DNA of 64,000 nt from an uncultured Thermodesulfobacteriota bacterium (GCA_964611295.1 CAZSWV010000002.1:74988-138987); one strand, 5' to 3'. Counted from the first letter of the stretch, positions 938-41,827 are shown. Program-made: numbers and translations. Notes: generated by a model not told the origin, from the sequence alone.

Positions 938-2374
938 TTATTTTTTTACGTATTCTGCTGCATTTTCACCAGCAATGCGTCCTGAGTTAACAGCAAACCC
1001 CATGGTATTTCCAGGAAGTATAAACACATAAGTATCAGCATTAATTGTATTAGCATCTGTTCCTGCAGCGTACAATCCTTTTATCAATTGATTGTCTTTG
1101 TCAACCACTTCGCACTTATAGTTGATACTTATTCCCCCTAAACTTCCATATCCGCCTAAAGCTAACTTGCCTGCGTAAAATTTCGGTTTCTTAATAGGTC
1201 TTAGGTAACGTGTGTTTTTATTAAAATCTGGGTCAAAACCTTTTTCACAATAATAATTGTACTTTTCCAATTGTTCTTTTAAACCATCCATGTCTATGCC
1301 GGTTTTCTCTGCTAACTCTTCTATAGAATCGCAAATAAATATTACGTCTTTTATTCCTCTTTTAAAGCAGTTTTCGATTAAAATTTCAAAGTTATTCAAT
1401 TTAAAAAATGGAAAAGGTACATGAATAAAATCAAATCCTACATTTTCCATATGCTGTTTTATGTTTTCGTCAAATATCATATAGGCTATTTTATTGGGCT
1501 GATTGAATATAGCATTGGCTACAAAAGTGGAATTGAAAATAATCCCCTCGTTTATGAATCGTTGACCTTTTAAATTTACGAGTAAATGTGGTTGTCGAAA
1601 AGCCTCGGCTAATTGAGGATGTACTTCCCCTGGCATTATGTAGATCAATTGCATAGTAATTTTTGTAGGTTTTGCACCTATTTCCCATGCCATGCGGATG
1701 CCATCTCCGTCTATACCCGCTACCCTGAAGGAAAATAGGTCTTTGCCCCATTCCAAGCCAGTATGTTGTTTGATCATATGGGGATTATTACCGCATCCTC
1801 CTGTAGCGATTATCACTGCTTTAGCCTTTACCATTATTTCGCCGTCTTGATTTTCAGCCACACATCCTGTGATTTTATCCTTTTCTTTTACAAGACGTTT
1901 AACAGGCGTGTTAAAGTAAAATTGCACTCCGAGCTTTTTCGCATAAAGGGTCATCTTTTTAAACATATTCGCAGCACAGCCAGGTCCTCCACCAGGTTTT
2001 ACTATATGCCAAGTTGGCCACCCTCCTGGGAAATATGCCATTGGTTCTAGGAATTCAACTCCCATACTTTCAAGCCATTCTATTGTATCCGCAGACTTTT
2101 CTATGTAGGTTCTGACTAAAAGGGCATCAACACGCCAGTGGGTAAATTCCATAAACACTCTAAAAGCGTCTTCTTTAGAAGGTCCCATTTGACGTAATTT
2201 CTGATGTCTGCTTTCAACGGCAAATAACCCCATTCCCATATTTCCAGTTCCGCCAGTAGTTTTACCTTTTTCAAATACAGACACCTGAACCCCTTTTTCA
2301 GCAGCTGCAATGGCAGCACTTAGCCCTGCTGCACCAGCTCCAATTACTGCTACATCAGTTTCAATCGTACGCAT
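938..2374 (-). CDS. FAD-dependent oxidoreductase of the fumarate reductase / 3-ketosteroid dehydrogenase / TcuA flavoprotein family
   Basis: N-terminal dinucleotide-binding motif DVAVIGAGAAGLSAA, length 478 aa, FAD_binding_2-like layout. Confidence 0.7.
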   Translation of the reverse strand: MRTIETDVAVIGAGAAGLSAAIAAAEKGVQVSVFEKGKTTGGTGNMGMGLFAVESRHQKLRQMGPSKEDAFRVFMEFTHWRVDALLVRTYIEKSADTIEWLESMGVEFLEPMAYFPGGWPTWHIVKPGGGPGCAANMFKKMTLYAKKLGVQFYFNTPVKRLVKEKDKITGCVAENQDGEIMVKAKAVIIATGGCGNNPHMIKQHTGLEWGKDLFSFRVAGIDGDGIRMAWEIGAKPTKITMQLIYIMPGEVHPQLAEAFRQPHLLVNLKGQRFINEGIIFNSTFVANAIFNQPNKIAYMIFDENIKQHMENVGFDFIHVPFPFFKLNNFEILIENCFKRGIKDVIFICDSIEELAEKTGIDMDGLKEQLEKYNYYCEKGFDPDFNKNTRYLRPIKKPKFYAGKLALGGYGSLGGISINYKCEVVDKDNQLIKGLYAAGTDANTINADTYVFILPGNTMGFAVNSGRIAGENAAEYVKK

Positions 2375-2386
2375 CTTTTTCCTCTT

Positions 2387-4453
2387 TTAATATTCAGCCC
2401 AAAATTTGATATTTGGGATACGTAACCTACTATCACATTGCAAACACCGACTAGCTTCCCTTTTAACTTCCTCTTCAGATGTTTCTTCTTTGATATCTAC
2501 CCTAGGAAGGTTTGCAAATTCTGGAATTTTTGCAAAAACAAATTTAGGTACCCTTTCTATATCCCTAAAGGGTATTTTTATCCCTAAATACTTGGCTATT
2601 GCGTAAGCAGCTTTTCTACCTTGACCGCAAGCATCTGATACACTTCTCATGCCATATACGACATCTCCACACGCAAAGACTCCCTCTTTTGATGTAAGGA
2701 AAGTATGAGGATCTATTTCCAATGTGCCATTGTTTTTTATCTTTAACCCAAAACTATCAGGGACTTCTGGCAATTGTCCAATGGCAAAAATAACGGTGTC
2801 ACAAATAACCTTCACTGTTTCTTTCTGAGGATACAACACCTTTATCTCTCCGTTTTCAAAAAGAAACCCCTCTATTTTTTGGAATATCATTTCCCATTTA
2901 TGGTTTTTTGCTATGATTTCCTTTAAATACAGTCGCGTATTAATTTTCACCTCTTTTGATTCTAATGCCTCTATTTCTTCCCTTCCCCATGTAAGCTCAG
3001 TTTTATCTTCTAAGCAGAATAGACTTACCGCTTTTGCTCCCAATCTTTTGGCAGTGAGGGCACAATCTACAGCTGATAGCCCTCCACCTATTACCACCAC
3101 GCTATCGCCTATTGTGAATTTTTCGCCTAAATTGAATTTTCTTAGAAAATCAACAGCCGTGTACAGCCCAGCAAGCCCCCGTGGAACACCTTTAGGCCAT
3201 ACGGGTTTGTTTGCCCCTATGGCTATAAGGATTGCTGAGAAGCCCTGTTCTTTTAAAGTTTCTAATTCCAAAACTTCGTGATTCAATTTAACATCTACCC
3301 CTGAACGGATTATAGCCTCAATTTCAGAATCAAGTATTTCACGAGGTAACCTAAAATAAGGAATGGCCACCCTCATCATTCCTCCTAGCGATACCTCCTT
3401 CTCAAATACGGTTACTTCAAGATTTAACTTAGTTAAAAAGTAAGCTGCAGTAAGTCCTGAAGGTCCTCCTCCTATTATTGCGATCTTTTTCTTTTTATTC
3501 CCTACGCGTGGAATTCTCTTCTTGTTTTCATGGTTTACATTTAACGTTTCGTCTAACATCTTAAGGGCGTAAAATTTAAGCCCTTTTATAGCAACTGATT
3601 CATTAACGTAGCCTCTTCTGCAACTTTTTTCACATGGACGATGACAAATATAAGAAAGTACTCTTGAAAAAGGGCTTTTATCTTTAAGTACTTTTACAGC
3701 TTTATAATAATTACCTTCTTTTATATGCCTTATGAACTCTGGAATATTAATCTCTAAAGGGCACGCTTCTTTACACGGTGTACTTTTTTTCTTTATATTT
3801 TGGATTGGCGTTTCTTTTTCTCTTATTGCAGCAGTAGGACATACTTCTACACAAGTACCACAGAAAATGCACCCTTCCTCTTTCAACGTTTTTCCAGAGT
3901 TGGTATACACATATTTATACCCATCTGTTTCTTTTACATCAAGTACGCCAATCCCTCTTAGTTCCCTGCATGCACGTACACATCTTTTACAAACTACACA
4001 CTTTGTAGGTTCAAATAATATCAAAGGGTTCTCATCAATTACAGGAAGAGGCTTTACAGGATAAGTCAGCAGTTCTTCTTGATTAACTCCAATAAACTGT
4101 TTTAAAGATTGCAATTCGCAGTTTAGATACTTGGGACAACCTATGCATTCATGAGGGTGACCTTTTAATAATTCTGTGAGTTTCTTTTTACGTATTAAAT
4201 AAATTTCTTCATCGTTTGTCAAGATGGACATGTTCTCTTGAACTTGGATACTACAGGAATTCTGTAATCCATCTATCCCTTTTATTTTAACTACACAAAG
4301 TCCACACTCTTCAATAGTAGAAACAATTGGGTGATAACATAAGTGTGGTATATAAATGCCCGCACTTAGCGCTGCCTCAAGTACTGTTGTTCCCTCATAA
4401 GTTTCGATTATATTACCATCAATCAGCAATTTAACTCTTCGCCTGTTGGGCAT
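2387..4453 (-). CDS. Fe-S flavoprotein: NuoG/FdhA-like N-terminus (2Fe-2S, His-ligated cluster, two 4Fe-4S motifs) fused to a GltD-like FAD/NAD(P)H oxidoreductase domain
   Basis: PHLCYHP...CGLCVV, HPHECIGCP, CVVCKRCVRAC...CIFCGTCVEVCP, then IAIIGGGPSGLTAAYFL and a second Rossmann motif. Confidence 0.7.
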   Translation of the reverse strand: MPNRRRVKLLIDGNIIETYEGTTVLEAALSAGIYIPHLCYHPIVSTIEECGLCVVKIKGIDGLQNSCSIQVQENMSILTNDEEIYLIRKKKLTELLKGHPHECIGCPKYLNCELQSLKQFIGVNQEELLTYPVKPLPVIDENPLILFEPTKCVVCKRCVRACRELRGIGVLDVKETDGYKYVYTNSGKTLKEEGCIFCGTCVEVCPTAAIREKETPIQNIKKKSTPCKEACPLEINIPEFIRHIKEGNYYKAVKVLKDKSPFSRVLSYICHRPCEKSCRRGYVNESVAIKGLKFYALKMLDETLNVNHENKKRIPRVGNKKKKIAIIGGGPSGLTAAYFLTKLNLEVTVFEKEVSLGGMMRVAIPYFRLPREILDSEIEAIIRSGVDVKLNHEVLELETLKEQGFSAILIAIGANKPVWPKGVPRGLAGLYTAVDFLRKFNLGEKFTIGDSVVVIGGGLSAVDCALTAKRLGAKAVSLFCLEDKTELTWGREEIEALESKEVKINTRLYLKEIIAKNHKWEMIFQKIEGFLFENGEIKVLYPQKETVKVICDTVIFAIGQLPEVPDSFGLKIKNNGTLEIDPHTFLTSKEGVFACGDVVYGMRSVSDACGQGRKAAYAIAKYLGIKIPFRDIERVPKFVFAKIPEFANLPRVDIKEETSEEEVKREASRCLQCDSRLRIPNIKFWAEY

Positions 4454-5042
4454 ATCTTATCTTGTCTCCTTTGTGTTCAATGCGGAAACAGAAAAAGGGA
4501 TTTGCGTTTGGGTCCTTTACTACTTGCCATATCTTAAATAAAGAGGGAAGGAAACGTCCTAGATTTGTCATTTCCTCTCTGCTGTGTTTCATCCACGCTT
4601 TTATTGTCTCAGGAGCTTCTGGGATTAAAGAAATAGCATATGAAGTACCTCGAACTCCGAAATCGGTTTTTTCCCATTGATGAATTCTATAGGAAATAGG
4701 TGGATTATCTTCTCGGAAATCCGCTTCGGTAAGTGATATACATGCAGCCACAAGGACATGGTCGTACTTAAGGAGCCCTTTAAGATCGTCTGATAAATTT
4801 GAAACGTCTTCCCACCTTATGTAAGGGGTTATCTCGTTACCATCCCAAACTTGAGGAGCTACATGAATAGCCCCAATTACGGAATGGCCTACCGGTTTTT
4901 TGATCCACTCGAAGCCTTTGTGGTCCTTGGGATGCCAAAGGAGGAAACCTTTATCCAAGTTACAGAACCACCAATCAAGCATTTCAGCTGTAATGCCTTT
5001 CAATTTCCAGGAGACTGAAGGCCATTTTCCTTCATCTTTCAT
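4431..5042 (-). CDS. Hypothetical protein of 203 aa inside the redox operon
   Basis: Long ORF packed between neighbouring genes on the same strand. I recognise no family. Confidence 0.5.
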   Translation of the reverse strand: MKDEGKWPSVSWKLKGITAEMLDWWFCNLDKGFLLWHPKDHKGFEWIKKPVGHSVIGAIHVAPQVWDGNEITPYIRWEDVSNLSDDLKGLLKYDHVLVAACISLTEADFREDNPPISYRIHQWEKTDFGVRGTSYAISLIPEAPETIKAWMKHSREEMTNLGRFLPSLFKIWQVVKDPNANPFFCFRIEHKGDKIRYAQQAKS

Positions 5043-5080
5043 GTTTCAACTCCTTTTTACTTTTTGCTTTTAAATCTCGA

Positions 5081-5593
5081 TCACCATAATCCTGTAGGAG
5101 GACCTCCCCCTGGAAGCCCTAATCGTTCGGTCCATGTCATGAGACTTATCTTCCAACGTCCTTTCTCTCGTACGTATTCATTGCGATAGTAACCTTGCAC
5201 CCAAAATAGCGATTGACCTGTTCTCGGGTACATGTACATCAGGTAAAGAAGCCACCTTCCTTTCGCTTTATCACCACTTACCTCAATTATAGGATGCACT
5301 ACAAAGTCCCCTTCTTTGCCTGCATGGGTTTTTGAAAGTTCTTCTTTAAACCATCTTCTAATAGCTTCTTTACCATGAACTGGTTCGTGTAGATACACGT
5401 TTACTGTTGCATCTTCAGCAAAACATTCAGCACATTCATCCCACTCAGTACATATCAATGCATCAACATACTTATGTTGTAACTCACGTATTTCATCTTT
5501 ATCTTCTAAAACTTGCAACCTTTGTTCAAGTTTTTTTATTTTTTCTTCAAGTTCAACAATCCTTTTCTCAAGTTCTTCCAATGTGCGTCCCAT
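5081..5593 (-). CDS. NTF2-like (SnoaL / ketosteroid-isomerase / BaiE-like fold) protein with an N-terminal coiled coil
   Basis: The start was moved to the internal ATG that follows AAAGGAGG. EELEKRIVELEEKIKKLEQR is a coiled coil, followed by an NTF2-like C-terminus. Confidence 0.55.
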   Translation of the reverse strand: MGRTLEELEKRIVELEEKIKKLEQRLQVLEDKDEIRELQHKYVDALICTEWDECAECFAEDATVNVYLHEPVHGKEAIRRWFKEELSKTHAGKEGDFVVHPIIEVSGDKAKGRWLLYLMYMYPRTGQSLFWVQGYYRNEYVREKGRWKISLMTWTERLGLPGGGPPTGLW

Positions 5594-5618
5594 ATTAATT
5601 CCTCCTTTTTTGAAAAAT

Positions 5619-7715
5619 TTATATTTTTCTTGCAGTTTCCCAAGCACTCGCTATAGCATCTACAATTAATGAAGGCTCTTTGCAATCACCTATTACATAA
5701 ATTTCTTTGGCAAAGTTTTTAAATATCTCCACCAATTCCTCATTAGGCATCATCGGAGCTAACGGTATAACAGTATCGGCTTCTAACAAAAGTCTGTCAC
5801 CGTTTTTTTCAATAATAACCCCTTTATTTGTTATTTCTAACACCTTCGCATTATTGTATATACTTACGCCCTTTTTGTTAAACCACTCTAAAAGCAATGC
5901 AAGACGGAAATCTACTACACCTTGTCCTATTTTTTCTCCTTCTTCTACAATTGTAACCTGCCTTCCTCTTTTTACAAGAAACTCTGCAATCTCACATCCT
6001 TGCAAGTTGCCTCCTATTATCACTACCCTTTTGCCGATAGGAATCCATATTTTTGTCAATAAATACAACAAACGTGGCCCAAAAATTTTTAGATATTTCT
6101 TGGCCTGCTTATGTAAAATGTCACTTGTTAGCACTATTTTACTATCAATCCCTTTAATTTGTGGTGTAACGATTTTTCCACCAGCAGCAATTATTAGAAC
6201 ATCAGGACTTAATTTTTTGATCAGTTCAATATCGGCTTTTTTGTTGGTTATAACATTAACTTTTAGTCTTTTAAGTTGAGTTTTATAATATTTAACTATG
6301 CTAAGTACATCTTCTGGAGTAGGACCTTTGACTAAGAAGGCTAGATCAAGAAGACCTCCTATTTTGGGTTCTTTTTCGATAAGGGTAACTTCATGTCCCC
6401 TTAAAGCCGATATCCTCGCTGCTTCCATTCCTGCTGGTCCTGCTCCTATTATTACTACTTTTTTTCTATCTCTTGAGGTCTCTATTGTTGGGTCTTCCTT
6501 TCCCATTGCGGCATTTATCCTACATCGTCTTTCCATACCTTTGCTTTGGTCAAGACAAGTACCACAAGCTGTGCAGGGTGCTATTTCATCTTCTCGACCT
6601 TCGGCAAGTTTACGGGGCAATTCTGGATCTGCCAAGAGCCGCCTGTTCATAGCTATAAAATCTGCTTTGCCCTCCCTTAGGGCTTTTTCGCCCAAATCAG
6701 GGTCCATTTTCCCTACAAGGATGATGGGGATCTTCAAGTATTTCTTTAATTGAGCTGCCAGGAGTATATTCGCCGCTTTACCGTGGAGTTTGGCGTAATA
6801 AAGGCTAGGGAAGTCTTTCACTGGGGGTTCAGGATAAAAGAAATAATCTGGTAAAAAACCGCCTACATGATAGCCCAACCAGTGGCTTCTTACATGAAGG
6901 GCATCTGCTCCCGCTTCTTCTAACAAAAGGGCGATTTTTTTGGCTTCTTCAAAGGTTAAACATTTGTCATCTTGTACCCCAAAAGCGCGTCCTAATTCAA
7001 TGGCGTTCATAATAACAGAAACGGCAAAATCCTTTCCTGCTCTGTTTTTAATTTCTTTAATGGTGTTGATTAAAATCCTAGCTCGATTTTCGGTACTACC
7101 TCCATAATCATCTTCTCGTCTATTCCAAAAAGGTGACAAGAAGTTGTGAAAAAGATGACTACTAGCGGCATTTATCTCGACTCCATCAAATCCTGCTTTC
7201 TTTGCACGAAGAGCCGCCTGTGCAAATTTATCTATAATTTCTTCAATTTCGGATATCGTTAACTTACGAGGCAAATCCCGATGGAAATCCAACGGTGTAT
7301 CCAACTTTATTGGATATGACCCTACAGGAGGACCTTCATAAAGAGGCGGCACATCAGGAAAAAGAGGATTTTGCCAAGGTCCGTCATGCCAAAGCAACAA
7401 GAAAGTAGGACAATCGTGTTTATGGATCACTTCCACGAGTTCCTTTAAACCGTCTATAAACCTGTCATCATCAAGACGATAGCGCTGAGGCCATCTTCCT
7501 CCCAAGGGATAATCCACAATAGGCGATTCCACAACTAATAAGCCAACCCCTCCTTTTGCAAAAGCTTCATAAAACGCTTTAACTTTTGGGTTCATTTTCA
7601 AGTCGTCCTTATGCCAATAATTCATAGCGGCTCCTGTTTTTATGATCCTATTCCTAGTCTTGACCTTCCCTATGTACCCAGGTTCTAAGAGTTTTTTATA
7701 TCGTGACATTAACAC
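5619..7715 (-). CDS. NADH:flavin oxidoreductase of the Old Yellow Enzyme / 2,4-dienoyl-CoA reductase (FadH / BaiCD / enoate reductase) family, with 4Fe-4S and a C-terminal FAD/NAD domain
   Basis: OYE-like N-terminus, the cluster motif CTACGTC...C, then VVIIGAGPAGMEAA and a second Rossmann motif. AAGGAGG precedes the ATG. Confidence 0.8.
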   Translation of the reverse strand: MLMSRYKKLLEPGYIGKVKTRNRIIKTGAAMNYWHKDDLKMNPKVKAFYEAFAKGGVGLLVVESPIVDYPLGGRWPQRYRLDDDRFIDGLKELVEVIHKHDCPTFLLLWHDGPWQNPLFPDVPPLYEGPPVGSYPIKLDTPLDFHRDLPRKLTISEIEEIIDKFAQAALRAKKAGFDGVEINAASSHLFHNFLSPFWNRREDDYGGSTENRARILINTIKEIKNRAGKDFAVSVIMNAIELGRAFGVQDDKCLTFEEAKKIALLLEEAGADALHVRSHWLGYHVGGFLPDYFFYPEPPVKDFPSLYYAKLHGKAANILLAAQLKKYLKIPIILVGKMDPDLGEKALREGKADFIAMNRRLLADPELPRKLAEGREDEIAPCTACGTCLDQSKGMERRCRINAAMGKEDPTIETSRDRKKVVIIGAGPAGMEAARISALRGHEVTLIEKEPKIGGLLDLAFLVKGPTPEDVLSIVKYYKTQLKRLKVNVITNKKADIELIKKLSPDVLIIAAGGKIVTPQIKGIDSKIVLTSDILHKQAKKYLKIFGPRLLYLLTKIWIPIGKRVVIIGGNLQGCEIAEFLVKRGRQVTIVEEGEKIGQGVVDFRLALLLEWFNKKGVSIYNNAKVLEITNKGVIIEKNGDRLLLEADTVIPLAPMMPNEELVEIFKNFAKEIYVIGDCKEPSLIVDAIASAWETARKI

Positions 7716-7867
7716 CTCCTTGACTCACAAGTTCACCTTTAAGGTGTCACAACATTCATGCCAACTGGATTAAAAGTCAAAAAGCCCAAAGGATACAGAA
7801 ACGAGTGAGGACATTTTGGCAACATTTTGCTGAAACGACCAATATCTGACTTCCTGAAAAGCCCTTT

Positions 7868-10800
7868 CTAAATGAGGCCTTCTGGAGAGGGACGCTTAAT
7901 GCCTAACTTCTTCATCTTAAAACGCAAAGTGCTCGGTTTTACCTTAAGGATAGTAGCAGCCCCCTTTGGGCCACTTATCCTCCAACCAGTTAGCTGTAAT
8001 ACTTTTTCTATATGTTCTTTCTCAACATCTGCTAGCGCTTTAAGAGGAGAAGAAACCTCCTCACCCTTGGAGGGCCTCTCTTCTCCAATTGTAAACTTCA
8101 CACTATACCCATTCGAAAGGATAACCGCCCTTTCAATGGTGTGTTTTAATTCTCTTACGTTACCAGGCCAATGGTAATCCAGTAATTTCTTTAACTCTAT
8201 CTGAGGAATGTTTTTTATCTTTTTGCCATATTTTTCACAGAACTTTTTCAAAAAGTGATTAACAAGGGGTATTATATCTTCCTTCCTCTCCCTAAGGGGC
8301 GGTATGTAAATTGGGAACACATTCAAGCGATAATACAAGTCCTGCCTAAAGGTTCCCTTTTTCACTTCTTCCCAAAGGTTTTTATTTGTAGCAGCTATTA
8401 TCCTAAAGTTTGACCTTATGGGCTTTGCTCCTCCTAGTCTCGTAAAAGTACCCTCCTCTAATACCCTCAACAATTTAACTTGAATGCTTAAAGGCAAATC
8501 ACCTATCTCATCGAAGAAAATCGTACCTCCATCAGCTAACTCCAATAAGCCCCTTTGTCTTTCATAAGCACCTGTAAAAGCTCCTTTTTCATGCCCAAAA
8601 AGTTCACTTGCAATTAATTCTTGAGGGATAGCTGCAAGATTGACCGCAATAAAAGGACCATTCCTTCTATCGCTGAGGTTATGAATAGTGCGAGCTACTA
8701 ATTCCTTTCCTACACCAGTTTCTCCTAATATGAGAACAGTGGCATCAGTTAACGCTACTTGTTTAATTTGCTCTATGATCGTTTTTATTGCTTGAGATTC
8801 TCCTATAATTGCAATTTTTTCTTTTTGTTCACTATTGTCAACAGTATATTCATTAAACGCAACACATAACATGTTATTAGCAGAGACTTCTTGTAAATAC
8901 AGGTTTGTAACAGCCAAAGAAACAAAAGCACATAGCATTCTTATGAAAGCTATAGTATCAGTTGAAAATTCTTCTTGGTCAATTTTTCCTTCTAGATATA
9001 GACAACCGCTTCGTTTAGCATCTAGCTTTATAGGCATACAAATGATAGGTTCTTTTAAATCGTCACGTGGAGACAATACTAATTCATATTCGTTTCGAAT
9101 CAAATCTAGGAAATTAATAGAGGATTTATCTTTGTTAAAAGAATAAGGATCTTTATTCCTGCTCACGAGAACTTTAATTTCGCCTTCTTCTTCGCTTAAC
9201 ACTGCCCCACGCATTGCGAGTGATATGTCCATTGCAACGTTTAATGCCTTTTCTAAAAACGAAGGTATTTCTCTTGCTGTTCGCAGTGCTTCGTTTAGTT
9301 TGATTATTCTATTCAATGTGACCTCAACCCTTTGATCGTCTGAAACCCATCCGACAAGGTCCTCTGGAAAAAGTCTGGGATCAATAGACGAAAGGACCTC
9401 CCAGGCTTTCTTTAAATAACCTTTGGCCTTTTTGATTTCACCTTTTTTCATGAAGTACCGGCCTAGTGATATCCAGGTACGGGACAGTTCAATCTGCGCG
9501 CCCGAATACCGCAGGTATCTTTCGCTACTCAAAAAATATTCCAAGGCTTTTTCATCTCCGGCTTCTAAATGTTTCAAACCCCTGTACCTAAGCGCAACGC
9601 CCTTCACAAAAAGATCGTCATACGAAAGCGCTTGTTCTATAAGGGATTCCAAATTGAAATCAGGGATTTCATAACCTGCCCTTTCTAAAATATACAAAGT
9701 TTCAAACAACCAAGGATAAAAAGTCAAAACTCTTCGTTTTTCACTTTTAAACTGGAAAGCCTTCTTTAGAAGAGCTTGGGCTTCTTTGTAGTTCTCGTAT
9801 AAAGTTTCTAAATAAGCCTTATGTATTAACACACCCCAGTAAAGGATATCTCCCAGGTCTTCCTGAGCTATGTTTAAAAGGTTTTCTAAGGATTTTTTAG
9901 CATCTTCTATTCTGTTAAGCGAAAAATAAGATATTACTTCTGCTTGGTGACAATAATTTACCACTTGACTATAGTTGAGCCTTTTGGCTTTTTCCTTAAC
10001 TGCTTCAATCATTCCTAATCCTCGCGAGACTCTCCCACACAATACAAGGCTAAAACCGATTAATTGAGTAGCCATCAATGCGTTCTCGTCTTCTTCGAAT
10101 TCCTCTATTTCATTGAGCAACTTTTCATAACACGCAATAGCTTCCTTAAACTTTCCTTTCCAGACGTAATATTCGCTCAAACAATGAGAGGAAAGCTTGA
10201 TTTCTTCGTTTTCTTCTAATAAATTAGCTAAATTCAAAAAACGCTCTATGTATTCTGAGGCTTCTGTGTACCATCCTATATCTTGAAAGGCTCTTCCTAA
10301 CTTAAGGCAAATTAATGCAAGTTTACTTTGGAAATTGTACATTTCTGCTAGTTCTTTTGCCTTTTGCAGTAAATGAATCTGATCTTGAGGTTGCATGCGA
10401 TGCATCAAAACATAAGCTTTCGCTATAGCACTGTCGACAAATAAAGAAGCTTCTTCTGCAGATTTTGGGTTATGTTTGGCAAAATGTTCTAAAATATAAT
10501 CGTAATAAGTAATTGATGAAAGTTTATCGTGGCTCTTGAGTAATAGATCAGCTGCCTCTTTTATTATTTTTAAACCTTCAATTGTTGGCAGTACTTTTTT
10601 AAATAGATCGGCCAAAGCCAGGGTTTTTCTTTCATAAGGTATCATCGCTTCTTTGTAATGATTTATTAACTTTTCTATAATATCAGCAACGTCTTCCAGG
10701 GGTATGGAATCTCTAAGTTCATTTAAACATGAAGGTTGCTTCAGAGAAAAAAGACCCCGTCCCGCTTCTTTGTGTTCTACCACCAACCCCCTTCGCCTTA

Positions 10801-10981
10801 GTTTTTCCATAAGGTTCAATACTGAAGTAGCCGGAGCCCCTGTTAACAGGCTAAGGCTATCAACAGACACTGGATGCTCAAAATAAAGAAAAGCAGTAAA
10901 TACTTTCTTTTCAGTTGAATCAAAAAGACCCCATAAACGTTTGAATTTTTCAAACTTCTCCATCGGGCAACATTTTGCCAA
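7868..10981 (-). CDS. Sigma-54-dependent transcriptional activator (bEBP) with a wHTH + TPR-like + GAF-like N-terminal region of about 700 aa
   Basis: AAA+ Walker A GETGVGKE, the sigma-54 contact motif GAFTGA, and a C-terminal Fis-type HTH. The N-terminal region is helical-repeat rich. Confidence 0.85.
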   Translation of the reverse strand: MAKCCPMEKFEKFKRLWGLFDSTEKKVFTAFLYFEHPVSVDSLSLLTGAPATSVLNLMEKLRRRGLVVEHKEAGRGLFSLKQPSCLNELRDSIPLEDVADIIEKLINHYKEAMIPYERKTLALADLFKKVLPTIEGLKIIKEAADLLLKSHDKLSSITYYDYILEHFAKHNPKSAEEASLFVDSAIAKAYVLMHRMQPQDQIHLLQKAKELAEMYNFQSKLALICLKLGRAFQDIGWYTEASEYIERFLNLANLLEENEEIKLSSHCLSEYYVWKGKFKEAIACYEKLLNEIEEFEEDENALMATQLIGFSLVLCGRVSRGLGMIEAVKEKAKRLNYSQVVNYCHQAEVISYFSLNRIEDAKKSLENLLNIAQEDLGDILYWGVLIHKAYLETLYENYKEAQALLKKAFQFKSEKRRVLTFYPWLFETLYILERAGYEIPDFNLESLIEQALSYDDLFVKGVALRYRGLKHLEAGDEKALEYFLSSERYLRYSGAQIELSRTWISLGRYFMKKGEIKKAKGYLKKAWEVLSSIDPRLFPEDLVGWVSDDQRVEVTLNRIIKLNEALRTAREIPSFLEKALNVAMDISLAMRGAVLSEEEGEIKVLVSRNKDPYSFNKDKSSINFLDLIRNEYELVLSPRDDLKEPIICMPIKLDAKRSGCLYLEGKIDQEEFSTDTIAFIRMLCAFVSLAVTNLYLQEVSANNMLCVAFNEYTVDNSEQKEKIAIIGESQAIKTIIEQIKQVALTDATVLILGETGVGKELVARTIHNLSDRRNGPFIAVNLAAIPQELIASELFGHEKGAFTGAYERQRGLLELADGGTIFFDEIGDLPLSIQVKLLRVLEEGTFTRLGGAKPIRSNFRIIAATNKNLWEEVKKGTFRQDLYYRLNVFPIYIPPLRERKEDIIPLVNHFLKKFCEKYGKKIKNIPQIELKKLLDYHWPGNVRELKHTIERAVILSNGYSVKFTIGEERPSKGEEVSSPLKALADVEKEHIEKVLQLTGWRISGPKGAATILKVKPSTLRFKMKKLGIKRPSPEGLI

Positions 10982-11022: not shown

Positions 11023-12684
11023 TCAAAGGCTAAGCTTAGTGAGTCCTTTCTCCTTGTAGGCGAGATAAGTAAGATATCCACCGCTTAAGTTTTCGGCTTG
11101 GTAACCTTTTTGCATGAGAATACGGCACGCTATGTAACTGCGCAGGCCTTGGGAACAATACACTTTTATCAGTCGGTTTTGTGGCAATTTGTCGAGATTA
11201 AACCGTAAACTTTCTAAAGGAATGTTAACCGCATAAGGGACATGTCCTTTTTTAAATTCTTCTTCACTCCTTACGTCTAACAAAAAATCCCCTGAGTCCA
11301 CGCGATCCCAGTGAGTGACATTTACAATATTTTTTATGATATTCTCTGCAATAAAACCAACCATGTTTATAGGATCTTTAGCACTCCCATAAGGTGGACT
11401 ATAAGCCAAATGTAGATCTTTAAGATCAATTATATTAAGGCCGCCATAAATAGCAGTGGCTATTACATCAATCCTTTTATCCACTCCTATTTGTCCTATC
11501 ATTTGAGCTCCTAGAATTCTTTTGGATTTTTTAGAAAACAGTATTTTCATATGAATTGGAGAAGCTCCTGGGTAATAAGTTGCATGGTCATAAGGATGAA
11601 GGTAAATTTTTTCGTAATCCTCATTGATCAACGGTAAACTACGCTCATTTATACCAGTTGACGCTACTGTGATATTAAAAACTTTCAATATTGATGTTGC
11701 AAGTGTCCCTTTGTAACGCTCTTGTCTTCCACATATGTTGTTTGCAACTACCCTTCCTTGTTTATTGGCAGGACCAGCAAGAGGTATGATCATTTTGCGT
11801 TTTGAAATGAGTTCTTCTGTTTCAATGGCATCACCAACCGCATAAATATCCGGATCGTTAGTCTGAAGAAACTCATTGACTTTTATCCCCCCATTTTCTC
11901 CAATATCTAGACCGGCATCAATCGCAAGTTTGACTTCAGGTTTTATACCAGTGGCCAGAATTACGAAATCGCATTCCTTTTCTTCCCCATCTTCCCAACG
12001 TACAGAGATTTTTTCCCCTTTTTTCTCAAAGGTTAAGACAGGTTGTCCTAGTTTCAGGCTTATTCCCTCTTGTTTAAGGTTTTCTTCCACGTAAAAGGAC
12101 ATTTCTTGATCTAGGTAGGGAAGTACTTGATTAAGGACGTCAGTCAGAGTGACTTCAAGCCCTCTTTTGCGAAAGTTTTCAGCAACTTCTAAGCCTATCG
12201 CTCCAGCCCCTAGTATAATGGTTTGTTTTGCCTTCCGGTAAGCGATGAACCTGTTTATAGCTTCGGCGTCGGGTATAGTTCGTAAAGTAAAAACCCCTTC
12301 TAAGTCTATACCTTTTATAGGTGGGCGGAAAGGTTCAGCTCCTGGTGAAAGTACTAATTTGTCATAACTTTCTCGGTATGTTCTGCCGTTTATCCTATCA
12401 AAAACCTCCACTTGTTTTTGGCTTCTGTCGATCTTTATAACTTCGTGTCCTATTCTCACGTCTACTTTAAAACGTTTCTTAAAGATTTCAGGTGTCATTA
12501 TAATGAGATGCTCCTTTTTGCCGATTACGCCACCCAAATAATAAGGAAGACCACAGTTAGCATAAGATATATATTCACCTCTTTCAAATAAAATGATCTC
12601 CGCTTCTTCGTTAAGACGCCTAAGCCTCGCAGCTACAGAAGCTCCTCCTGCCACACCTCCTACAATTAAAACCTTTAAGCCCAT
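11023..12684 (-). CDS. CoA-disulfide reductase / NADH-dependent persulfide reductase with a C-terminal rhodanese domain
   Basis: Active-site motif YANCGLPYY, two Rossmann motifs, and a C-terminal rhodanese loop VYCSQGLRS. Confidence 0.75.
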   Translation of the reverse strand: MGLKVLIVGGVAGGASVAARLRRLNEEAEIILFERGEYISYANCGLPYYLGGVIGKKEHLIIMTPEIFKKRFKVDVRIGHEVIKIDRSQKQVEVFDRINGRTYRESYDKLVLSPGAEPFRPPIKGIDLEGVFTLRTIPDAEAINRFIAYRKAKQTIILGAGAIGLEVAENFRKRGLEVTLTDVLNQVLPYLDQEMSFYVEENLKQEGISLKLGQPVLTFEKKGEKISVRWEDGEEKECDFVILATGIKPEVKLAIDAGLDIGENGGIKVNEFLQTNDPDIYAVGDAIETEELISKRKMIIPLAGPANKQGRVVANNICGRQERYKGTLATSILKVFNITVASTGINERSLPLINEDYEKIYLHPYDHATYYPGASPIHMKILFSKKSKRILGAQMIGQIGVDKRIDVIATAIYGGLNIIDLKDLHLAYSPPYGSAKDPINMVGFIAENIIKNIVNVTHWDRVDSGDFLLDVRSEEEFKKGHVPYAVNIPLESLRFNLDKLPQNRLIKVYCSQGLRSYIACRILMQKGYQAENLSGGYLTYLAYKEKGLTKLSL

Positions 12685-17445: not shown

Positions 17446-17475
17446 GTTGACATTTTTAAAAATTCCGTTTAAAAT
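17446..17475 (+). promoter_or_regulatory. Candidate sigma-70 promoter of katG
   Basis: TTGACA, an 18-nt spacer, then TAAAAT, about 25 nt upstream of the AGGAGG ribosome-binding site. Confidence 0.4.
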
Positions 17476-17497
17476 TAAAAAAACTACAAAAGGAGGC

Positions 17498-19699
17498 ATG
17501 ATGAAAGGGCAAACCCGGAAAAGGTGGATAACGGATTGGTGGCCTCAAAGGTTAAACCTTAAGGTGTTGCGTCAAAACTGCATTTGTTCTAATCCTTTCG
17601 GTCCTGATTATGACTATGCAGAAGAATTTGAGAGCCTTGATCTGTCGAAAGTAAAGGAAGACCTTCGAGAGATTATGACTAAATCTCAAGATTGGTGGCC
17701 AGCAGATTTTGGTCATTACGGCCCATTATTTATACGTCTAGCGTGGCACAGTGCGGGTAGTTATAGGGTTTTTGATGGAAGAGGAGGTGCAAGAAGCGGT
17801 GATATAAGGTTCCCTCCGCGCATCAACTGGCCTGACAATATGAATCTCGACAAAGCTCTGAGGTTGTTATGGCCTATTAAACAAAAATATGGGAGAAAGT
17901 TGTCTTGGGCAGATTTGATCATCCTTGCAGGTAACGTAGCGTTAGAGTCAATGGGAGTGAAAACCATTGGATTTGCAGGAGGCAGAGAGGATATTTGGGA
18001 GCCTGACGAAAGTGCAGATTGGGGGCCTGAACAAGAAATGCTTTCGGGTAAGGAAAGGTTCAAAGAGGGAGAATTGGAAAGGCCGTTTGCTGCTACTGAA
18101 ATGGGTTTGATATACGTAAACCCAGAAGGCCCAGAGGGAAACCCAGATCCCATGGCCTCCGCCAAACAGATAAGGGAGGCTTTTTCGCGTATGGGTATGA
18201 ACGATGAAGAAACGGTAGCCCTTATAGCAGGTGGGCATGCCTTTGGTAAATGTCATGGTGCATGTGCGGATACATACGTTGGACCAGATCCAAGTTCTTC
18301 ACCTATTGAGGAGCAAGGTCTTGGATGGAAAAATACTTACAAAAGTGGAAAAGGTCCCGATACTTTTACCTCTGGATTTGAGCTAACATGGTCACCTACA
18401 CCTACAAAGTTCGGTTTAAATTACTTACATATATTGTTTAACTATGAATGGGAATTGACCAAAAGCCCTGCAGGAAAATACCAATGGGTTGCTAAGGACG
18501 CTCCAGCTATTATCCCTGATGCATATGACCCACAAAAAAAACATCCTCCTATGATGCTAACTGCTGATTTGGCTTTGCGTTTTGATCCAGTCTATGCTGA
18601 AATAGCAAAACGTTATCTCCATAATCCAAAACAGTTCGAGGAAGCTTTCGCTAAAGCGTGGTTTAAACTTACTCACCGTGATCTTGGCCCTAAAGAGTGT
18701 TATCTTGGTCCAGAAGTCCCCGAGGAGACCTTTTTATGGCAAGATCCGCTTTCTTTGCGTGATTACGAGCTTATAGACGAAGAAGACATAGAAGAGTTGA
18801 AAAAAGTCCTTTCTGAGTCAGGTTTGGGGATCTCGGAGATGGTGTACACTGCGTGGTCTGCTGCCTCTACCTATAGGAATTCGGATAGACGCGGAGGGGC
18901 AAACGGAGCCCGTATACGACTTCTTCCCCAAAGGCAATGGGAAGTAAACCATCCTGATGATCTTATACGCATACTTAAGGTCTATGGAACCATCCAGGAG
19001 AAGTTCAATTCTGAACAGAAAAAGCGGAATACTGGGAAGAAGGTGTCAATGGCCGACCTTATCGTATTAGCTGGCTGTGTAGCAGTAGAGCTGGCAGCCC
19101 AAAAAGCAGGTTTCAATATAAAAATACCCTTTGTGCCTGGTAGAGTAGATGCTGAACAAGAACACATCGATTTGAACTTTTGGTCGTTATTGGAGCCTTT
19201 CGCTTGCGGTTTTCGTAATTACATAAAAGATCCTTCAAAAATAAAAGCAGAAGAAGCCCTTATCGATAAAGCACAATTGTTAACACTTAAGGTAACCGAA
19301 CTTGTAGTGTTAATAGGTGGTCTTAGAGTTTTAGGGGCTACCTATAAATATTCGAATTATGGTGTATTCACCGAAAAAAGAGGAGTTCTTACAAATGACT
19401 TTTTTGTAAACCTTTTAGATATGTCTGTTACATGGGAAGCGCTTGACAAGTACCGTTACCTTTTTAAGGGTATTGATAGAAAAACAGGCAGTGCGAAGTG
19501 GTTAGCTACTCGAGTAGATTTAATTTTTGGACACCATGATGAATTAAGGGCAATATGCGAGGTTTATGCTTCATCAGATGGGAAAGAAAAATTTATAGAA
19601 GATTTTGTAAAAACATGGACCAAGGTGATGCATCTTGATAGGTTTGACTTATGGCGGAACAACAGGAAACTTTATAAACAGCTTGTAGCAGGCATCTAA
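17498..19699 (+). CDS. katG: Catalase-peroxidase
   Basis: The start is set at ATGATG after AGGAGG. Typical KatG N-terminus [11 protein letters not shown], two-domain length. Confidence 0.92.
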
Positions 19700-23203: not shown

Positions 23204-24403
23204 ATGAAAGACTTAAACGCCATAGAAGAAAGGAACAAACTGCTGAGGGAATCCGTCAGACAAATTGCTAGAACTAAAGTAGCAAAAAGAGCAGCAGAAA
23301 TCGATCGGGCTGGAGTTTTTCCATGGGATATAGCAGAACTTTTTGCACAACAGGGGTATTTAAGCATCCTCTTCCCCGAAGAATATGGAGGATTTGATGG
23401 TAGCATTACAGCTCTTTGCATAGTAGCTGAAGAAATAGCATACGCATGTGCCTCAAGTTCATTAATGATTGTTGCTCACTCCGTAGGCTTAATACCATTG
23501 ATGATATCGGGTACAAAAGAACAAAAAGAGTATTTTTACAGTCGTGTAGCTAAAGAAGGAGCTTTAGTAGCGTTTGCCTTAACAGAACCAGAAGCTGGCT
23601 CAGATGCCTCAGCTTTAAAAACCACTGCAATTCGCAAGGGAGATTATTACGTGGTAAACGGGAGAAAGACATTTGTAACTAATGGAGGAGTAGCTGATAT
23701 TTATACTGTTTTTGTAACAACAGATCCATCAAAGGGGAAGAAAGGGATTGCAGTTCTAATGATTGAAAAAGATACAAAAGGAATGTATATAGGTAAACCT
23801 GAAGACAAAATGGGAATGAGAGGCTCCGATACAACTGATCTTATTTTTGAAGATGCTATAGTACCTGCAGAAAACCTCATCGGAGGTGAGGGCAACGGTT
23901 GGGAAATTGCAATGATGACATTGAATTTATCGCGTCCCTCTGTTGGAGCATTAGCTATAGGAATAGCCCAAGGAGCTTTGGACTGTGCACTTGAGTATAC
24001 CACTCAACGGGTTCAATTTGGACAAAAGCTAGCAGATTTTCAAGGAGTGCAATTTATGTTAGCTGATATGGCGATGAAAATTGAAGCAGCGCGTGCTTTA
24101 GTATACAAAGCAGCTGCTTTATTAGATGAAAAAGTTTACGAAAGAGACAAAATGTCAGCCTTAGGTGTGGATACTTTGTCTGCAATGGCAAAATGTTTTG
24201 CTTCAGATGTGGCAATGCAAGTTACTACAGATGCCGTACAACTATTAGGTGGGTATGGATATTTAAAAGATTACCCAGTAGAAAGAATGATGCGTGATGC
24301 TAAGGTAACTCAAATTTTTGAAGGAACTAACCAAATTCAGAGAATAATAATAGCTCGCAATCTTTTAAAGCCATTTTGGAAAAAAGAACTGAGAAAGGAT
24401 TAA
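23204..24403 (+). CDS. Acyl-CoA dehydrogenase
   Basis: ACAD fold across the whole length, with the C-terminal catalytic-region motif IFEGTNQIQR. Confidence 0.88.
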   Translation: MKDLNAIEERNKLLRESVRQIARTKVAKRAAEIDRAGVFPWDIAELFAQQGYLSILFPEEYGGFDGSITALCIVAEEIAYACASSSLMIVAHSVGLIPLMISGTKEQKEYFYSRVAKEGALVAFALTEPEAGSDASALKTTAIRKGDYYVVNGRKTFVTNGGVADIYTVFVTTDPSKGKKGIAVLMIEKDTKGMYIGKPEDKMGMRGSDTTDLIFEDAIVPAENLIGGEGNGWEIAMMTLNLSRPSVGALAIGIAQGALDCALEYTTQRVQFGQKLADFQGVQFMLADMAMKIEAARALVYKAAALLDEKVYERDKMSALGVDTLSAMAKCFASDVAMQVTTDAVQLLGGYGYLKDYPVERMMRDAKVTQIFEGTNQIQRIIIARNLLKPFWKKELRKD

Positions 24404-28007: not shown

Positions 28008-28050
28008 GGAGTTTTTATAATACTTAGTTATTGATAAATTGTCAATGCAA

Positions 28051-33938: not shown

Positions 33939-33941
33939 ACT

Positions 33942-34547: not shown

Positions 34548-34558
34548 GTGAAAAACTC

Positions 34559-37303: not shown

Positions 37304-37304
37304 T

Positions 37305-37560: not shown

Positions 37561-37618
37561 TCCCTCTCAATGAGTTTATGGTCAACAGTGTAGTCTTCTT
37601 GATAGAATCTTTTAGCTC

Positions 37619-40748: not shown

Positions 40749-40760
40749 AGGAGGGGAAAG

Positions 40761-41753: not shown

Positions 41754-41756
41754 AGT

Positions 41757-41790
41757 CCTTTGGGGAGGCCTTATAAGGCCTCCCCAAAGG
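41757..41790 (+). promoter_or_regulatory. Perfect 14-bp stem-loop between etfA and the membrane oxidoreductase gene (attenuator or processing/stability element)
   Basis: CCTTTGGGGAGGCC-TTATAA-GGCCTCCCCAAAGG with no strong U-tract after it. Confidence 0.5.
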
Positions 41791-41827
41791 GAAAGATCGT
41801 TTTGAATCATACGTAGGAGGTCAATCC

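Follow-up and report, generated by a model that had tools for sequence, protein, structure and literature searches.

A conserved operon of two flavin C=C reductases, an Fe-S electron feeder, an NTF2-like protein and a PhlG-like protein in candidate division WOR-3, with a possible role in oxygen-free phenolic breakdown

We studied a 64,000-nucleotide (nt) stretch of DNA from an uncultured bacterium (CAZSWV010000002.1:74988-138987), hereafter the window, in which a sigma-54 activator gene and five redox-type genes lie co-oriented on the minus strand. An earlier reading of the window, made by a model and referred to as the original prediction, had described these genes as a Bai-like flavoprotein operon. 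The six open reading frames (ORFs) were found at or within a few codons of the coordinates given there. We find it firmly supported that they form a conserved operon uniting two flavin C=C reductases, an NAD(P)H/Fe-S feeder, an NTF2 enzyme and a PhlG-type C-C hydrolase; the operon is probably sigma-54-dependent. Its genes and candidate regulatory elements are as follows (aa, amino acids):

938-2374, minus strand: FAD2 gene, 478 aa; ORF call plus FAD_binding_2
2387-4453, minus strand: NuoG/GltD fusion gene, 688 aa; ORF call plus Pfam
4431-5042, minus strand: short PhlG-like gene, 203 aa; ORF call plus Pfam DAPG_hydrolase
5081-5593, minus strand: NTF2 gene, 170 aa; the ORF also opens at GTG 5647
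5619-7709, minus strand: OYE gene, 696 aa; likelier start ATG 7709
7749-7763, minus strand: sigma-54-type -24/-12 promoter-like element TGGCATgaatgTTGT, about 40 nt upstream of the OYE start
7818-7830, minus strand: copy 2 of GCAAAATGTTGCC, exact 13-mer, in the activator-OYE spacer about 55 nt upstream of the -24 element
7868-10963, minus strand: sigma-54 activator gene, 1031 aa; likelier start ATG 10963 (the ORF to 10981 gives 1037 aa)
10966-10978, minus strand: copy 1 of GCAAAATGTTGCC, exact 13-mer, ending 2 nt before the activator ATG

The tight packing of the five redox genes claimed earlier is borne out by their spacing of -23 to +38 nt. That is, FAD2 and the fusion gene are separated by a 12-nt gap, the fusion and the 203-aa gene overlap by 23 nt, and gaps of 38 and 25 nt follow up to NTF2 and OYE, respectively, while 158 nt lie between OYE and the activator gene. 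Each gene is preceded by an AGGAGG-like ribosome-binding site. Most start coordinates stood as given in the original prediction, but two are likelier to lie further downstream: OYE at ATG 7709, six nt downstream of AAGGAGGTG, and the activator at ATG 10963, which is supported by its call as a 1031-aa protein in four metagenome contigs. No intergenic terminator was predicted within the operon, terminator-like matches occur at chance level (8 vs. 8.5 expected), and a scan for sigma-70 promoters also gave matches at chance level.

Conservation of the gene neighbourhood, which the original prediction had named as a check, is observed at several levels. The same locus is present on four metagenome contigs. 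The operon furthermore recurs in the related loci L009 (72-95% protein identity) and L161 (OYE 87%) with the same housekeeping flanks, i.e., dapA, ATP synthase a/c and CoA-disulfide reductase on one side and mnmA and nadE on the other, which argues for a conserved unit rather than a chance juxtaposition. A third locus (L160, 1-7103; WOR-3-like, OYE 76% identical) shows the order EBP-OYE-NTF2-NuoG/GltD-(FAD2), with EBP being the enhancer-binding protein, and has no PhlG-like gene. In L161 (12801-15306), the PhlG-like gene seems to be shortened to 153 aa and the NuoG/GltD gene to be broken into two parts of 508 and 143 aa. Given the missing hydrolase gene of L160 and its apparent truncation in L161, we consider the regulator, OYE, NTF2, the Fe-S feeder and FAD2 to be the core and the hydrolase to be accessory; the PhlG-like gene may be decaying in some populations.

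Profile annotation with Pfam and NCBIfam agrees with the families assigned earlier to OYE, NTF2, the NuoG-GltD fusion, FAD2 and the activator. None of the curated NCBIfam equivalog cut-offs tested (BaiCD, bilirubin reductase, mycofactocin OYE, VprA, TcuA) is reached by the operon proteins. The original prediction knew of no such pathway in its lineage; no characterised pathway with the same gene order was matched. TcuA scores 182 bits against a cut-off of 369.

FAD2 is recognised by FAD_binding_2 (E 1.4e-61) and carries no heme, FMN_bind or Fe-S domain. Its best NCBIfam family is the vinyl phenol reductase VprA (NF053717), matched over the full length with 327.7 bits vs. a cut-off of 600; VprA is a characterised phenolic C=C reductase (PMC10295242). 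Further matches are flavocytochrome c, TcuA and 3-ketosteroid dehydrogenases (128-153 bits), and the relatives in the PDB are flavocytochrome c3 fumarate reductases and urocanate reductase. We regard FAD2 as a soluble enzyme of the fumarate reductase/urocanate reductase/VprA class, which putatively reduces a C=C bond in a phenolic compound or an enone. Assignments as tricarballylate (TcuA) or urocanate reductase were ruled out by the curated cut-offs and the context. For tetrahydrodaidzein reductase of the equol pathway, membership of the FAD_binding_2 enzymes could not be confirmed and a review describes it otherwise, and it was therefore not used as evidence.

The NuoG/GltD fusion combines Fer2_4, NADH-G_4Fe-4S_3, a Fer4 dicluster, Fer4_20 (E 3.9e-17) and Pyr_redox_2 (E 2.5e-30) domains and holds 27 Cys in its 688 aa. 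Its N-terminal half is of the NuoG/HydA type with a 2Fe-2S, a His-ligated 4Fe-4S and two CX2CX2CX3C 4Fe-4S clusters, while the C-terminal half is of the NfnB/GltD type with two 4Fe-4S clusters as well as FAD and NAD(P)H sites. Both GxGxxG/A motifs are intact (GGGPSG at residue 328, GGGLSA at residue 456), and the best solved relatives are the NfnB-like regions of 9bov, StnC (8oh5) and NfnA (9n5u). The Fer4_20, Pyr_redox_2 and NuoG-type domains thus support the dedicated NAD(P)H/Fe-S input module claimed earlier. Judged by these domains, the fusion is a putative NAD(P)H-to-Fe-S electron feeder for FAD2, its gene lying directly upstream of FAD2 in at least four lineages (window/L009/L161/L160, L102, L029, L082). 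Among these, identities to the window proteins are 48% (FAD2) and 37% (fusion) for L029, from Tissierella pigra, and 58% and 38% for L082, a Deferrisomatales metagenome-assembled genome (MAG). An NfnA-, NuoE- or NuoF-like partner was not found in the window, while L082 and L029 have NuoF-like genes; electron bifurcation by the fusion is neither indicated nor excluded.

OYE matches Oxidored_FMN and Pyr_redox_2 and shows the architecture of the FadH/2-enoate-reductase class, i.e., a TIM barrel for FMN, a 4Fe-4S linker with the motif C379-x2-C-x2-C-x10-C396 and FAD/NAD(P)-type Rossmann domains. Its NCBIfam scores are 330.6 bits for BaiCD (NF041087; cut-off 825), 352 for bilirubin reductase (cut-off 750) and 352 for mycofactocin OYE-2 (cut-off 793); the latter two assignments were ruled out by the curated cut-offs and the context. 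The best solved relative is the 2-naphthoyl-CoA reductase NCR (6qkg, 269 bits; FadH 175 bits), and this similarity is split into 188 bits for the C-terminal FAD/Rossmann half and 74 bits for the OYE barrel. The proton donor of NCR, Tyr197 (Tyr166 in FadH), aligns with a His of OYE within the unusual motif INAASSHLF, NCR's Trp459 aligns with a Val, and residues 243-321 of OYE, an 80-residue region, have no NCR counterpart. A His/His(Asn) pair is absent from OYE as it is from FadH and NCR. The motif INA[AG]S[ST]HL is kept across the clade of OYE; the OYE enzymes associated with FLR and CHI, only 28% identical, have the classical IHG[AG]HG motif. The second Rossmann motif reads GGNLQG in the window, GGGLHG in most relatives and GGNEIS in NCR.

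These comparisons bear on an acyl-CoA route, in which the core would reduce, isomerise or desaturate an alicyclic or aromatic acyl-CoA in an NCR- or dienoyl-CoA-like manner, the Fe-S protein would supply low-potential electrons and the PhlG-like protein would cleave a beta-keto ring intermediate. We consider this route unlikely, though it has to be taken seriously, as NCR is the best solved relative, shares the GGN variant and, like FadH, also has no His pair. NCR has no NADPH site, which is blocked by Trp459, and needs a ferredoxin-like donor (PMC6502838); such a need would explain a dedicated Fe-S module. However, the OYE domain itself is weakly NCR-like at 74 bits, both Tyr197 and Trp459 are replaced, most OYE relatives have an intact GGGxxG motif, and there is neither a CoA ligase nor a CoA transferase in or beside the operon.

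The NTF2 protein belongs to SnoaL_4 (E 1.6e-25) and starts with a heptad-like helix. Its best solved relative is LdpA (8abv, E 4.7e-10, about 42 bits; the alignment includes the N-terminal helix), followed by BaiE (4l8o, E 1.4e-6). LdpA is a diarylpropane lyase whose phenolic substrate, a lignin dimer, is processed via a quinone methide (PMC9942872). The two tyrosines of its oxyanion hole, Tyr35 and Tyr147, correspond in the alignment to Tyr42 and Tyr136 of the NTF2 protein, which are invariant in the family alignment, while the acid/base residues His97, Asp40 and Glu143 of LdpA are not kept. The NTF2 protein therefore probably catalyses another reaction, as an isomerase or dehydratase and not as a deformylase. 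We treat the protein as a putative enolate/phenolate-stabilising isomerase, dehydratase or lyase.

Three superfamilies of the bai operon are hence present (BaiCD/H OYE, BaiE/I NTF2, BaiJ FAD_binding_2), and the respective scores (331 bits for BaiCD, E 1e-6 for BaiE, 128-153 bits for 3-ketosteroid dehydrogenases) could be taken as a sign of a Bai-like steroid or terpenoid ring modification. In that case, a polycyclic enone, for instance a hopanoid or a lipid resembling a steroid, would undergo 3-oxo-delta4/delta1 reduction, dehydration and isomerisation. We hold this to be highly improbable. BaiCD scores 331 bits where 825 are required, the NTF2 protein is nearer to LdpA than to BaiE, equivalents of BaiB, BaiA, BaiF and BaiG are absent from the six genes and their flanks, and steroid-pathway genes occur in none of the 120+ related loci. 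Of the Bai-like label, the shared superfamilies stand, but the scores stay below the equivalog cut-offs, and no CoA ligase, CoA transferase, hydroxysteroid dehydrogenase or transporter lies within the 20.6-kb locus surveyed around the operon.

The 203-aa protein, listed without a family in the original prediction, passes the Pfam cut-off for DAPG_hydrolase (PF18089; 35.5 vs. 22.7 bits) and is predicted to have a PhlG/phloretin-hydrolase-like Bet v1 fold. A profile of 23 family members reaches PhlG (3hwp) at E 5.7e-6 and also phloretin hydrolase. For its AlphaFold2 model (pLDDT 91), the top five Foldseek matches are phloretin hydrolase (5xey/5xe5) and PhlG (3hwp) at probability 1.00, a query-normalised TM score of about 0.6 and 17-19% identity, followed by generic Bet v1/PR-10 proteins. 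A PDB search with the single sequence gave no match, such that the kinship is seen only by family profile and predicted fold. The motifs WHPxxH and HxxEE are invariant. The Zn ligands of PhlG are His129, Glu160, His270 and Glu274 (mapped through the alignment); H41, H153 and E157, which are invariant in the family, align with three of them, while the fourth position (Glu160) is occupied by Gln63 here, as Gln is typical of this subgroup, and by Glu in a shorter one. Compared to the full-length PhlG/Phy proteins (275-300 aa vs. about 200 aa here), the N-terminal residues (about 90) are missing, i.e., the protein covers profile positions 36-223 and PhlG residues 109-296. Given its modelled fold and ligand positions, we consider it a putative C-C hydrolase of the retro-Claisen type that would depend on a metal. 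Searching the literature for a short protein of the DAPG-hydrolase type with a characterised function returned nothing relevant.

Next, we consider the genomic company of this short family. In a pattern/tblastn scan, for which each species was represented by a single genome, at least 384 relatives of the 203-aa protein were detected, from which 80 loci (L012-L091) were retrieved. An apparent rarity of the family (27 matches in a word-indexed search) was discarded as a search artefact given the at least 384 loci of the wider scans; an exhaustive profile search (E<=1e-3) results in 627 representative clusters, long PhlG-type proteins included. For the 80 loci, all ORFs within +/-10 kb were clustered all-against-all and annotated with Pfam. 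The following neighbours were counted:

SDR: 31/80 loci
Bacterial chalcone isomerase (CHI): 24/80 loci
3HCDH: 22/80 loci
FLR-type FMN_red: 22/80 loci (22-24 by tblastn with FLR 7D38)
Cyclase: 20/80 loci
BKACE: 19/80 loci
Sigma-54 activators: 19/80 loci
LysR: 18/80 loci
Butyrate/acetate kinase: 15/80 loci
FAD_binding_2 + Succ_DH_flav_C: 14/80 loci
PTA: 13/80 loci
IOR-like: 11-12/80 loci
Long PhlG/Phy: 11/80 loci
OYE: 9/80 loci

At least one of CHI, FLR, long Phy, DPGC-type cyclase and TAL-type BKACE is found within 10 kb in 47/80 loci, and at least two in 29/80. The CHI representative is a full-length homologue of the Eubacterium ramulus CHI (3zph, E 2e-61), and seven FLR homologues show 58-67% identity to the crystallised FLR of Flavonifractor plautii (7D38). 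SDR, cyclase, 3HCDH-like and BKACE are the families of PGR, DPGC, TfD and TAL of the characterised phloroglucinol pathway (PMC10470551); three or more of these four occur near the PhlG-like gene in 19 loci. The published flavone pathway is composed of FLR, CHI, EnoR and PHY (PMC7862272). The nearest relatives of the 203-aa protein (L012-L018, 49-56% identity) come from Bathyarchaeia, delta/Thermodesulfobacteriota and Syntrophorhabdaceae MAGs and mostly share this context. Since the 203-aa protein is PhlG-like and its family lies in flavonoid/phloroglucinol clusters, the likeliest substrate shifts from steroids or enoyl-CoAs to plant-type phenolics.

The other operon members are found in similar company. 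Besides FAD2 and the fusion, L029 has genes for long Phy and short PhlG-like proteins, for FLR-like and NuoF-like Fe-S proteins, and for PTA, IOR and a kinase. In L082, PTA and kinase genes are joined by those for an FLR homologue (E 1.2e-35 to 7D38), for VOC-family and short PhlG-like proteins, for NuoE/F-like and flavodoxin-like proteins and for a GAF-containing sigma-54 activator. OYE homologues with 41% identity directly follow CHI in the Desulfobacteraceae loci L031 and L051, and in L011 a SnoaL_4 gene adjoins the PhlG-like gene. Two apparent natural fusions join the PhlG-like domain to FAD_binding_2 and Succ_DH_flav_C (P0329, 749 aa) or to SnoaL_4 (P0332, 378 aa); each has a single representative and may be a gene-calling artefact.

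Some observations on these clusters reach beyond the operon. The short PhlG-like family (about 180-215 aa) occurs in flavonoid/phloroglucinol clusters of many phyla, often as the sole PhlG-family gene within 10 kb, and its cultured carriers include Castellaniella defragrans, Tissierella pigra, Clostridium spp., Alkalibacter mobilis and Brenneria populi; there, it may be the working phloretin-type hydrolase or have a distinct role. A divergent FLR-like subfamily, 26-32% identical to the F. plautii FLR over the full length including the C-terminal tail, is carried by Bathyarchaeia, Syntrophorhabdaceae and other anaerobes, with its genes adjoining FAD2, PhlG-like or OYE-NTF2 genes in L016, L017, L018, L107, L119, L029 and L082. 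Finally, PTA_PTB and a butyrate/acetate-kinase-like gene accompany the PhlG-like gene in L010, L029, L082 and about 13-15/80 loci, often together with an indolepyruvate-type 2-oxoacid:ferredoxin oxidoreductase. The PTA_PTB and kinase genes suggest substrate-level phosphorylation from cleavage products.

A different context is observed when starting from the OYE, NTF2 and FAD2 proteins. Metagenomic homologues at E<=1e-30 number 6,769 for OYE and 2,356 for FAD2. Close relatives reach about 56-64% identity for OYE, 65-76% for NTF2 and 58-68% for FAD2 (hundreds for the latter), with the NTF2 partners at 65-76% following OYE genes in many loci. A recurrent cassette (L092-L134) of the form [TetR][SDR][AbfD-like]-OYE-NTF2-3HCDH-FAD2 is found in metagenomes from wetlands, peat and sediments, accompanied by genes for TRAP or ABC transporters, thiolase, acyl-CoA dehydrogenase and enoyl-CoA hydratase; L093 has HGD-D/BcrAD genes in addition and L094 a molybdoenzyme. 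The 'HpaB-like' member of the cassette is closest to 4-hydroxybutyryl-CoA dehydratase (AbfD; 1u8v, E 1e-70). NTF2 is more conserved than its OYE partner in these cassettes; its function may be strict, or the two may form a tight complex. The cassette matched no characterised pathway in the comparisons made. An apparent 64-74% identity of the cassette SDR to PGR was discarded, as L019 sat in both comparison sets.

This company again speaks for acyl-CoA chemistry, given that the neighbours of relatives with 58-76% identity include AbfD-like, HGD-D/BcrAD, 3HCDH and thiolase genes as well as those for enoyl-CoA hydratase and acyl-CoA dehydrogenase. The 3HCDH, thiolase, hydratase and dehydrogenase genes may, however, equally serve the C4/C6 products of a cleaved phenolic ring (cf. 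PMC10470551), and no CoA ligase or transferase is among the genes listed for L092-L094. Flavonoid-type markers are found in few cassette loci, i.e., a divergent FLR-like gene right after NTF2 (L107, L119), BKACE (L104, L108) and PhlG-like genes (L019, L100). The FAD2 of L082, which is 70-71% identical to the cassette FAD2, bridges the flavonoid-type and the cassette contexts. In summary, the enoyl-CoA reading offered in the original prediction stays alive as a rival through the neighbours of the cassette, but phenolics are favoured.

On the regulatory side, the activator shows Sigma54_activat (E 3.7e-72), AAA_lid_14, HTH_8 and TPR matches, and its translation contains the GAFTGA motif. The domain order is a possible winged helix-turn-helix, TPR/MalT-like repeats, a GAF-like segment, the AAA+ sigma-54 domain and a Fis-type helix-turn-helix; the N-terminal 540 aa are mostly TPR/MalT-like with a weak winged-helix match. 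The sigma-54 activator predicted earlier is thus found, but its ligand-sensing GAF-like domain is weakly indicated, namely by three concordant GAF-clan matches that all stay below threshold at about residues 545-725 (1037-aa numbering): DUF3369 with 20.6 bits (cut-off 27.2; E 6e-4), GAF with 17.2 (cut-off 22.4; E 0.008) and GAF_3 with 15.7 (cut-off 27; E 0.02). A single-sequence AlphaFold2 model of the segment was unusable (pLDDT 38).

The 13-mer GCAAAATGTTGCC is the core of an imperfect palindrome GGCAA-N4-TTGCC and occurs exactly at two places only within the window, where the chance recurrence of a given exact 13-mer in 128 kb of two-strand sequence is estimated at about 0.002. The copy at 7818-7830 lies in a near-invariant block shared by the window, L009 and L161 (one C-to-T change in L009/L161), while the flanks diverge. 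We infer from their sequence and position that both copies are candidate activator-binding sites, the one at 10966-10978 being possibly autoregulatory and the one at 7818-7830 a candidate upstream activating sequence. The element TGGCATgaatgTTGT shows 2 mismatches to TGGCAC-N5-TTGC at the correct spacing, with GT instead of GC in its -12 part. Its counterpart in L009 and L161 is TTGGCACGAATGTTGT within otherwise diverging sequence, and a similar element TGGCATGATCTTTGA is found in L160. As the sigma-54 consensus is not enriched window-wide (34 found vs. 33.6 expected), the putative promoter is called from position and conservation only. No rpoN/sigma-54 family member was among the window ORFs scanned, a scan that took in only part of the ORFs.

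The dedicated regulator is of relevance for a further explanation, according to which the operon would serve enone/quinone detoxification or act as a fermentative electron sink, with broad-specificity reductases and with the NTF2 and PhlG-like proteins as accessory binders only. The OYE and FAD_binding_2 families do include promiscuous ene-reductases and terminal reductases (fumarate, urocanate, vinylphenol), Bet v1 folds often serve to bind ligands, and the operon contains neither downstream catabolic genes nor a transporter. We nevertheless judge this explanation improbable, since a 1031-aa sigma-54 activator and the strict conservation of NTF2 (65-76%, above OYE) argue for a specific pathway and the invariant His/His/Glu of the PhlG-like family argues for catalysis.

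The reading that we favour, tentatively and as one possibility among several, is that of an inducible catabolic or electron-sink operon, by which a phenolic compound (a flavonoid, an acylphloroglucinol or one of the resorcinol type) would be reduced without oxygen and cleaved in a retro-Claisen reaction. The likeliest substrate class would be a flavonoid, chalcone, dihydrochalcone, acylphloroglucinol or a meta-hydroxylated ring of the resorcinol/phloroglucinol type. Three observations support the phenolic class: the neighbours of the hydrolase family, the FLR/Phy/CHI company of FAD2 with its feeder and of distant OYEs, and the action of VprA and LdpA on phenolics. Moreover, neither a CoA-activating enzyme nor a transporter is encoded in or beside the operon, in line with an aromatic substrate that is free and permeates the membrane. 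Phenols are, as a general rule, cleaved anaerobically by dearomatising them reductively before a retro-Claisen step (PMC10470551).

According to this proposal, the TPR/GAF-like sigma-54 activator would sense the compound, bind the repeated GCAAAATGTTGCC and open the TGGCAT-N5-TTGT promoter. The NuoG/NfnB fusion would oxidise NAD(P)H at its FAD and pass single electrons via about six Fe-S clusters to FAD2; as FAD2 itself is without a domain for electron entry, the fusion would be to it what FrdB is to FrdA. FAD2 and OYE, whose reductase class is clear from their families, would each reduce a C=C bond conjugated to a carbonyl or phenol, i.e., a quinone-methide/enone tautomer. Between these reductions, the NTF2 protein may stabilise an enolate/phenolate by its two conserved tyrosines and thereby promote isomerisation, ring opening or dehydration in a chalcone-isomerase-like manner. 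Finally, the short PhlG-like protein, with its predicted fold and three ligand positions, may hydrolyse an aryl-ketone or beta-diketone C-C bond by metal-assisted retro-Claisen cleavage, as phloretin hydrolase does.

A number of points weigh against this proposal. The functional links are guilt by association or distant homology, as for the NTF2 protein, where LdpA is matched at about 42 bits. OYE has no His/His(Asn) pair, which binds the free carbonyl or carboxylate in classical OYEs and 2-enoate reductases. The PhlG-like protein is only 17-19% identical to Phy/PhlG, has Gln in place of one PhlG Zn ligand (E160) and is encoded by an accessory gene, missing in L160 and truncated-looking in L161. 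The 64-kb window contains no homologue of CHI, FLR, long Phy, PGR, DPGC or TAL. The closest OYE, NTF2 and FAD2 relatives sit among acyl-CoA-type genes, thus pointing to acyl-CoA chemistry, and few of the cassette loci have flavonoid-type markers. Furthermore, the presumed hot-spring habitat would be odd for flavonoids.

A bolder generalisation would be that core, feeder and hydrolase represent a widespread, hitherto uncharacterised and ATP-independent way of reductive dearomatisation and cleavage of phenolic (polyphenol/lignin-derived) rings in anoxic sediments, peat and hot springs; we regard this as a long shot. The genes of such a system may underlie the ferredoxin-dependent route of the 'resorcinol reductase plus dione hydrolase' type. 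The gene of the ferredoxin-dependent resorcinol reductase is unnamed in the only open-access paper that we found to mention the enzyme (PMC10470551).

With regard to the host, the original prediction had suggested a thermophile of the Thermodesulfobacteria. An exact-sequence look-up corrects the lineage, since the operon proteins equal MEO0242416-MEO0242420 (NCBI) of a candidate division WOR-3 bacterium MAG. Thermophily is supported by the following gene:

57796-61200, plus strand: reverse gyrase, 1134 aa; zf_Rg, DEAD/ResIII helicase, Toprim and Topoisom_bac (topoisomerase IA) domains

Reverse gyrase is a hallmark of (hyper)thermophiles and supplies the best evidence of thermophily within the window.

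Further genes of the window are side observations. Directly upstream of the regulator lies a CoA-disulfide reductase-rhodanese fusion (11023-12684, minus strand), whose L009 counterpart (2553-3902) is called as two fragments (258 + 172 aa), suggesting a frameshift, gene decay or an assembly error. A catalase-peroxidase with a KatG-type peroxidase domain (17447-19699, plus strand, 750 aa) is encoded in a genome that otherwise looks anaerobic/fermentative; the same gene is found near the operon region in L161. An acyl-CoA dehydrogenase (23204-24403, plus strand) could form an electron-transfer flavoprotein (ETF)-linked system with genes at 39957-43843 (plus strand), i.e., an ETF-alpha type ORF of 330 aa (40761-41753), a preceding 263-aa ORF that may be the second ETF subunit and a downstream 671-aa Fe-S/CCG-domain oxidoreductase. 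A cobalamin riboswitch (37376-37561, minus strand, 120 bits) lies upstream of a Peripla_BP_2/FecCD ABC transporter, after which a cobalamin-biosynthesis run (about 27200-37340, minus strand) follows with a CbiG-TP_methylase fusion and several TP_methylases.

If the phenolic reading is true, enzymes of anaerobic polyphenol breakdown, which are known mainly from gut Firmicutes, would extend to the uncultured thermophilic phylum WOR-3. Two families for which our searches found no characterisation, namely the short PhlG-like hydrolase (at least 384 species genomes) and the OYE-NTF2-FAD2 cassette, would then bear on the oxygen-free mobilisation of phenolic carbon, i.e., the 'enzyme latch' question (PMC10470551). 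For biocatalysis, they would also be a source of C-C hydrolases and ene-reductases that are thermostable. A testable model for the electron supply to soluble FrdA-like reductases is provided by the conserved pairing of such an enzyme with a NuoG/NfnB fusion.

Finally, we compared the operon with known systems. It is a new combination of known enzyme kinds and not a new kind of system, and it belongs neither to the bai operons nor to the systems of type III aryl-CoA reductases, nor is it part of the canonical flavone pathway or of the tested NCBIfam equivalogs. With the bai operon it shares three superfamilies, but it shows sigma-54 regulation and has a PhlG-like hydrolase and a NuoG/NfnB fusion in addition. 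NCR, FadH (1ps9) and clostridial 2-enoate reductases have the same three-domain FMN/4Fe-4S/FAD architecture as OYE, whereas their catalytic Tyr (Y197 in NCR, Y166 in FadH) is His here and no CoA-activation gene is near. The SnoaL_4 fold of the NTF2 protein is that of LdpA, BaiE and ketosteroid isomerase. NfnAB, StnC and 9bov share the two-cluster Fer4_20 module and the FAD and NAD(P)H sites with the fusion, whose domain order is permuted compared to StnC, and FAD2 is without an Fe-S cluster of its own, just as FrdA depends on FrdB.

The flavone pathway FLR-CHI-EnoR-PHY of F. plautii and E. ramulus (PMC7862272) resembles the operon in its sequence of C=C reduction, isomerisation/ring opening, a second reduction and retro-Claisen cleavage. 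At class level only, EnoR is the same FAD + 4Fe-4S OYE/FadH enzyme as OYE, although OYE has His for the catalytic Tyr and no His/His(Asn) pair. PHY is of the same PhlG superfamily as the 203-aa protein: the fold of PhlG and phloretin hydrolase is shared and WHPxxH and HxxxE align with the Zn-ligand regions of PhlG, but the N-terminal residues (about 90) of PHY/PhlG are missing and one ligand position holds Gln. In place of FLR and CHI, the window has the NTF2 protein and an FAD_binding_2 reductase with an Fe-S feeder. With the phloroglucinol/resorcinol pathways (PMC10470551), the operon would share the logic of reducing the keto tautomer of a meta-hydroxylated phenol prior to retro-Claisen cleavage; PGR, DPGC, TfD and TAL are absent from the window, and the reductases are flavoenzymes with Fe-S input instead of SDRs. 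By analogy, the operon would thus appear to work most like the flavonoid/phloroglucinol degradation toolkits, with different parts.

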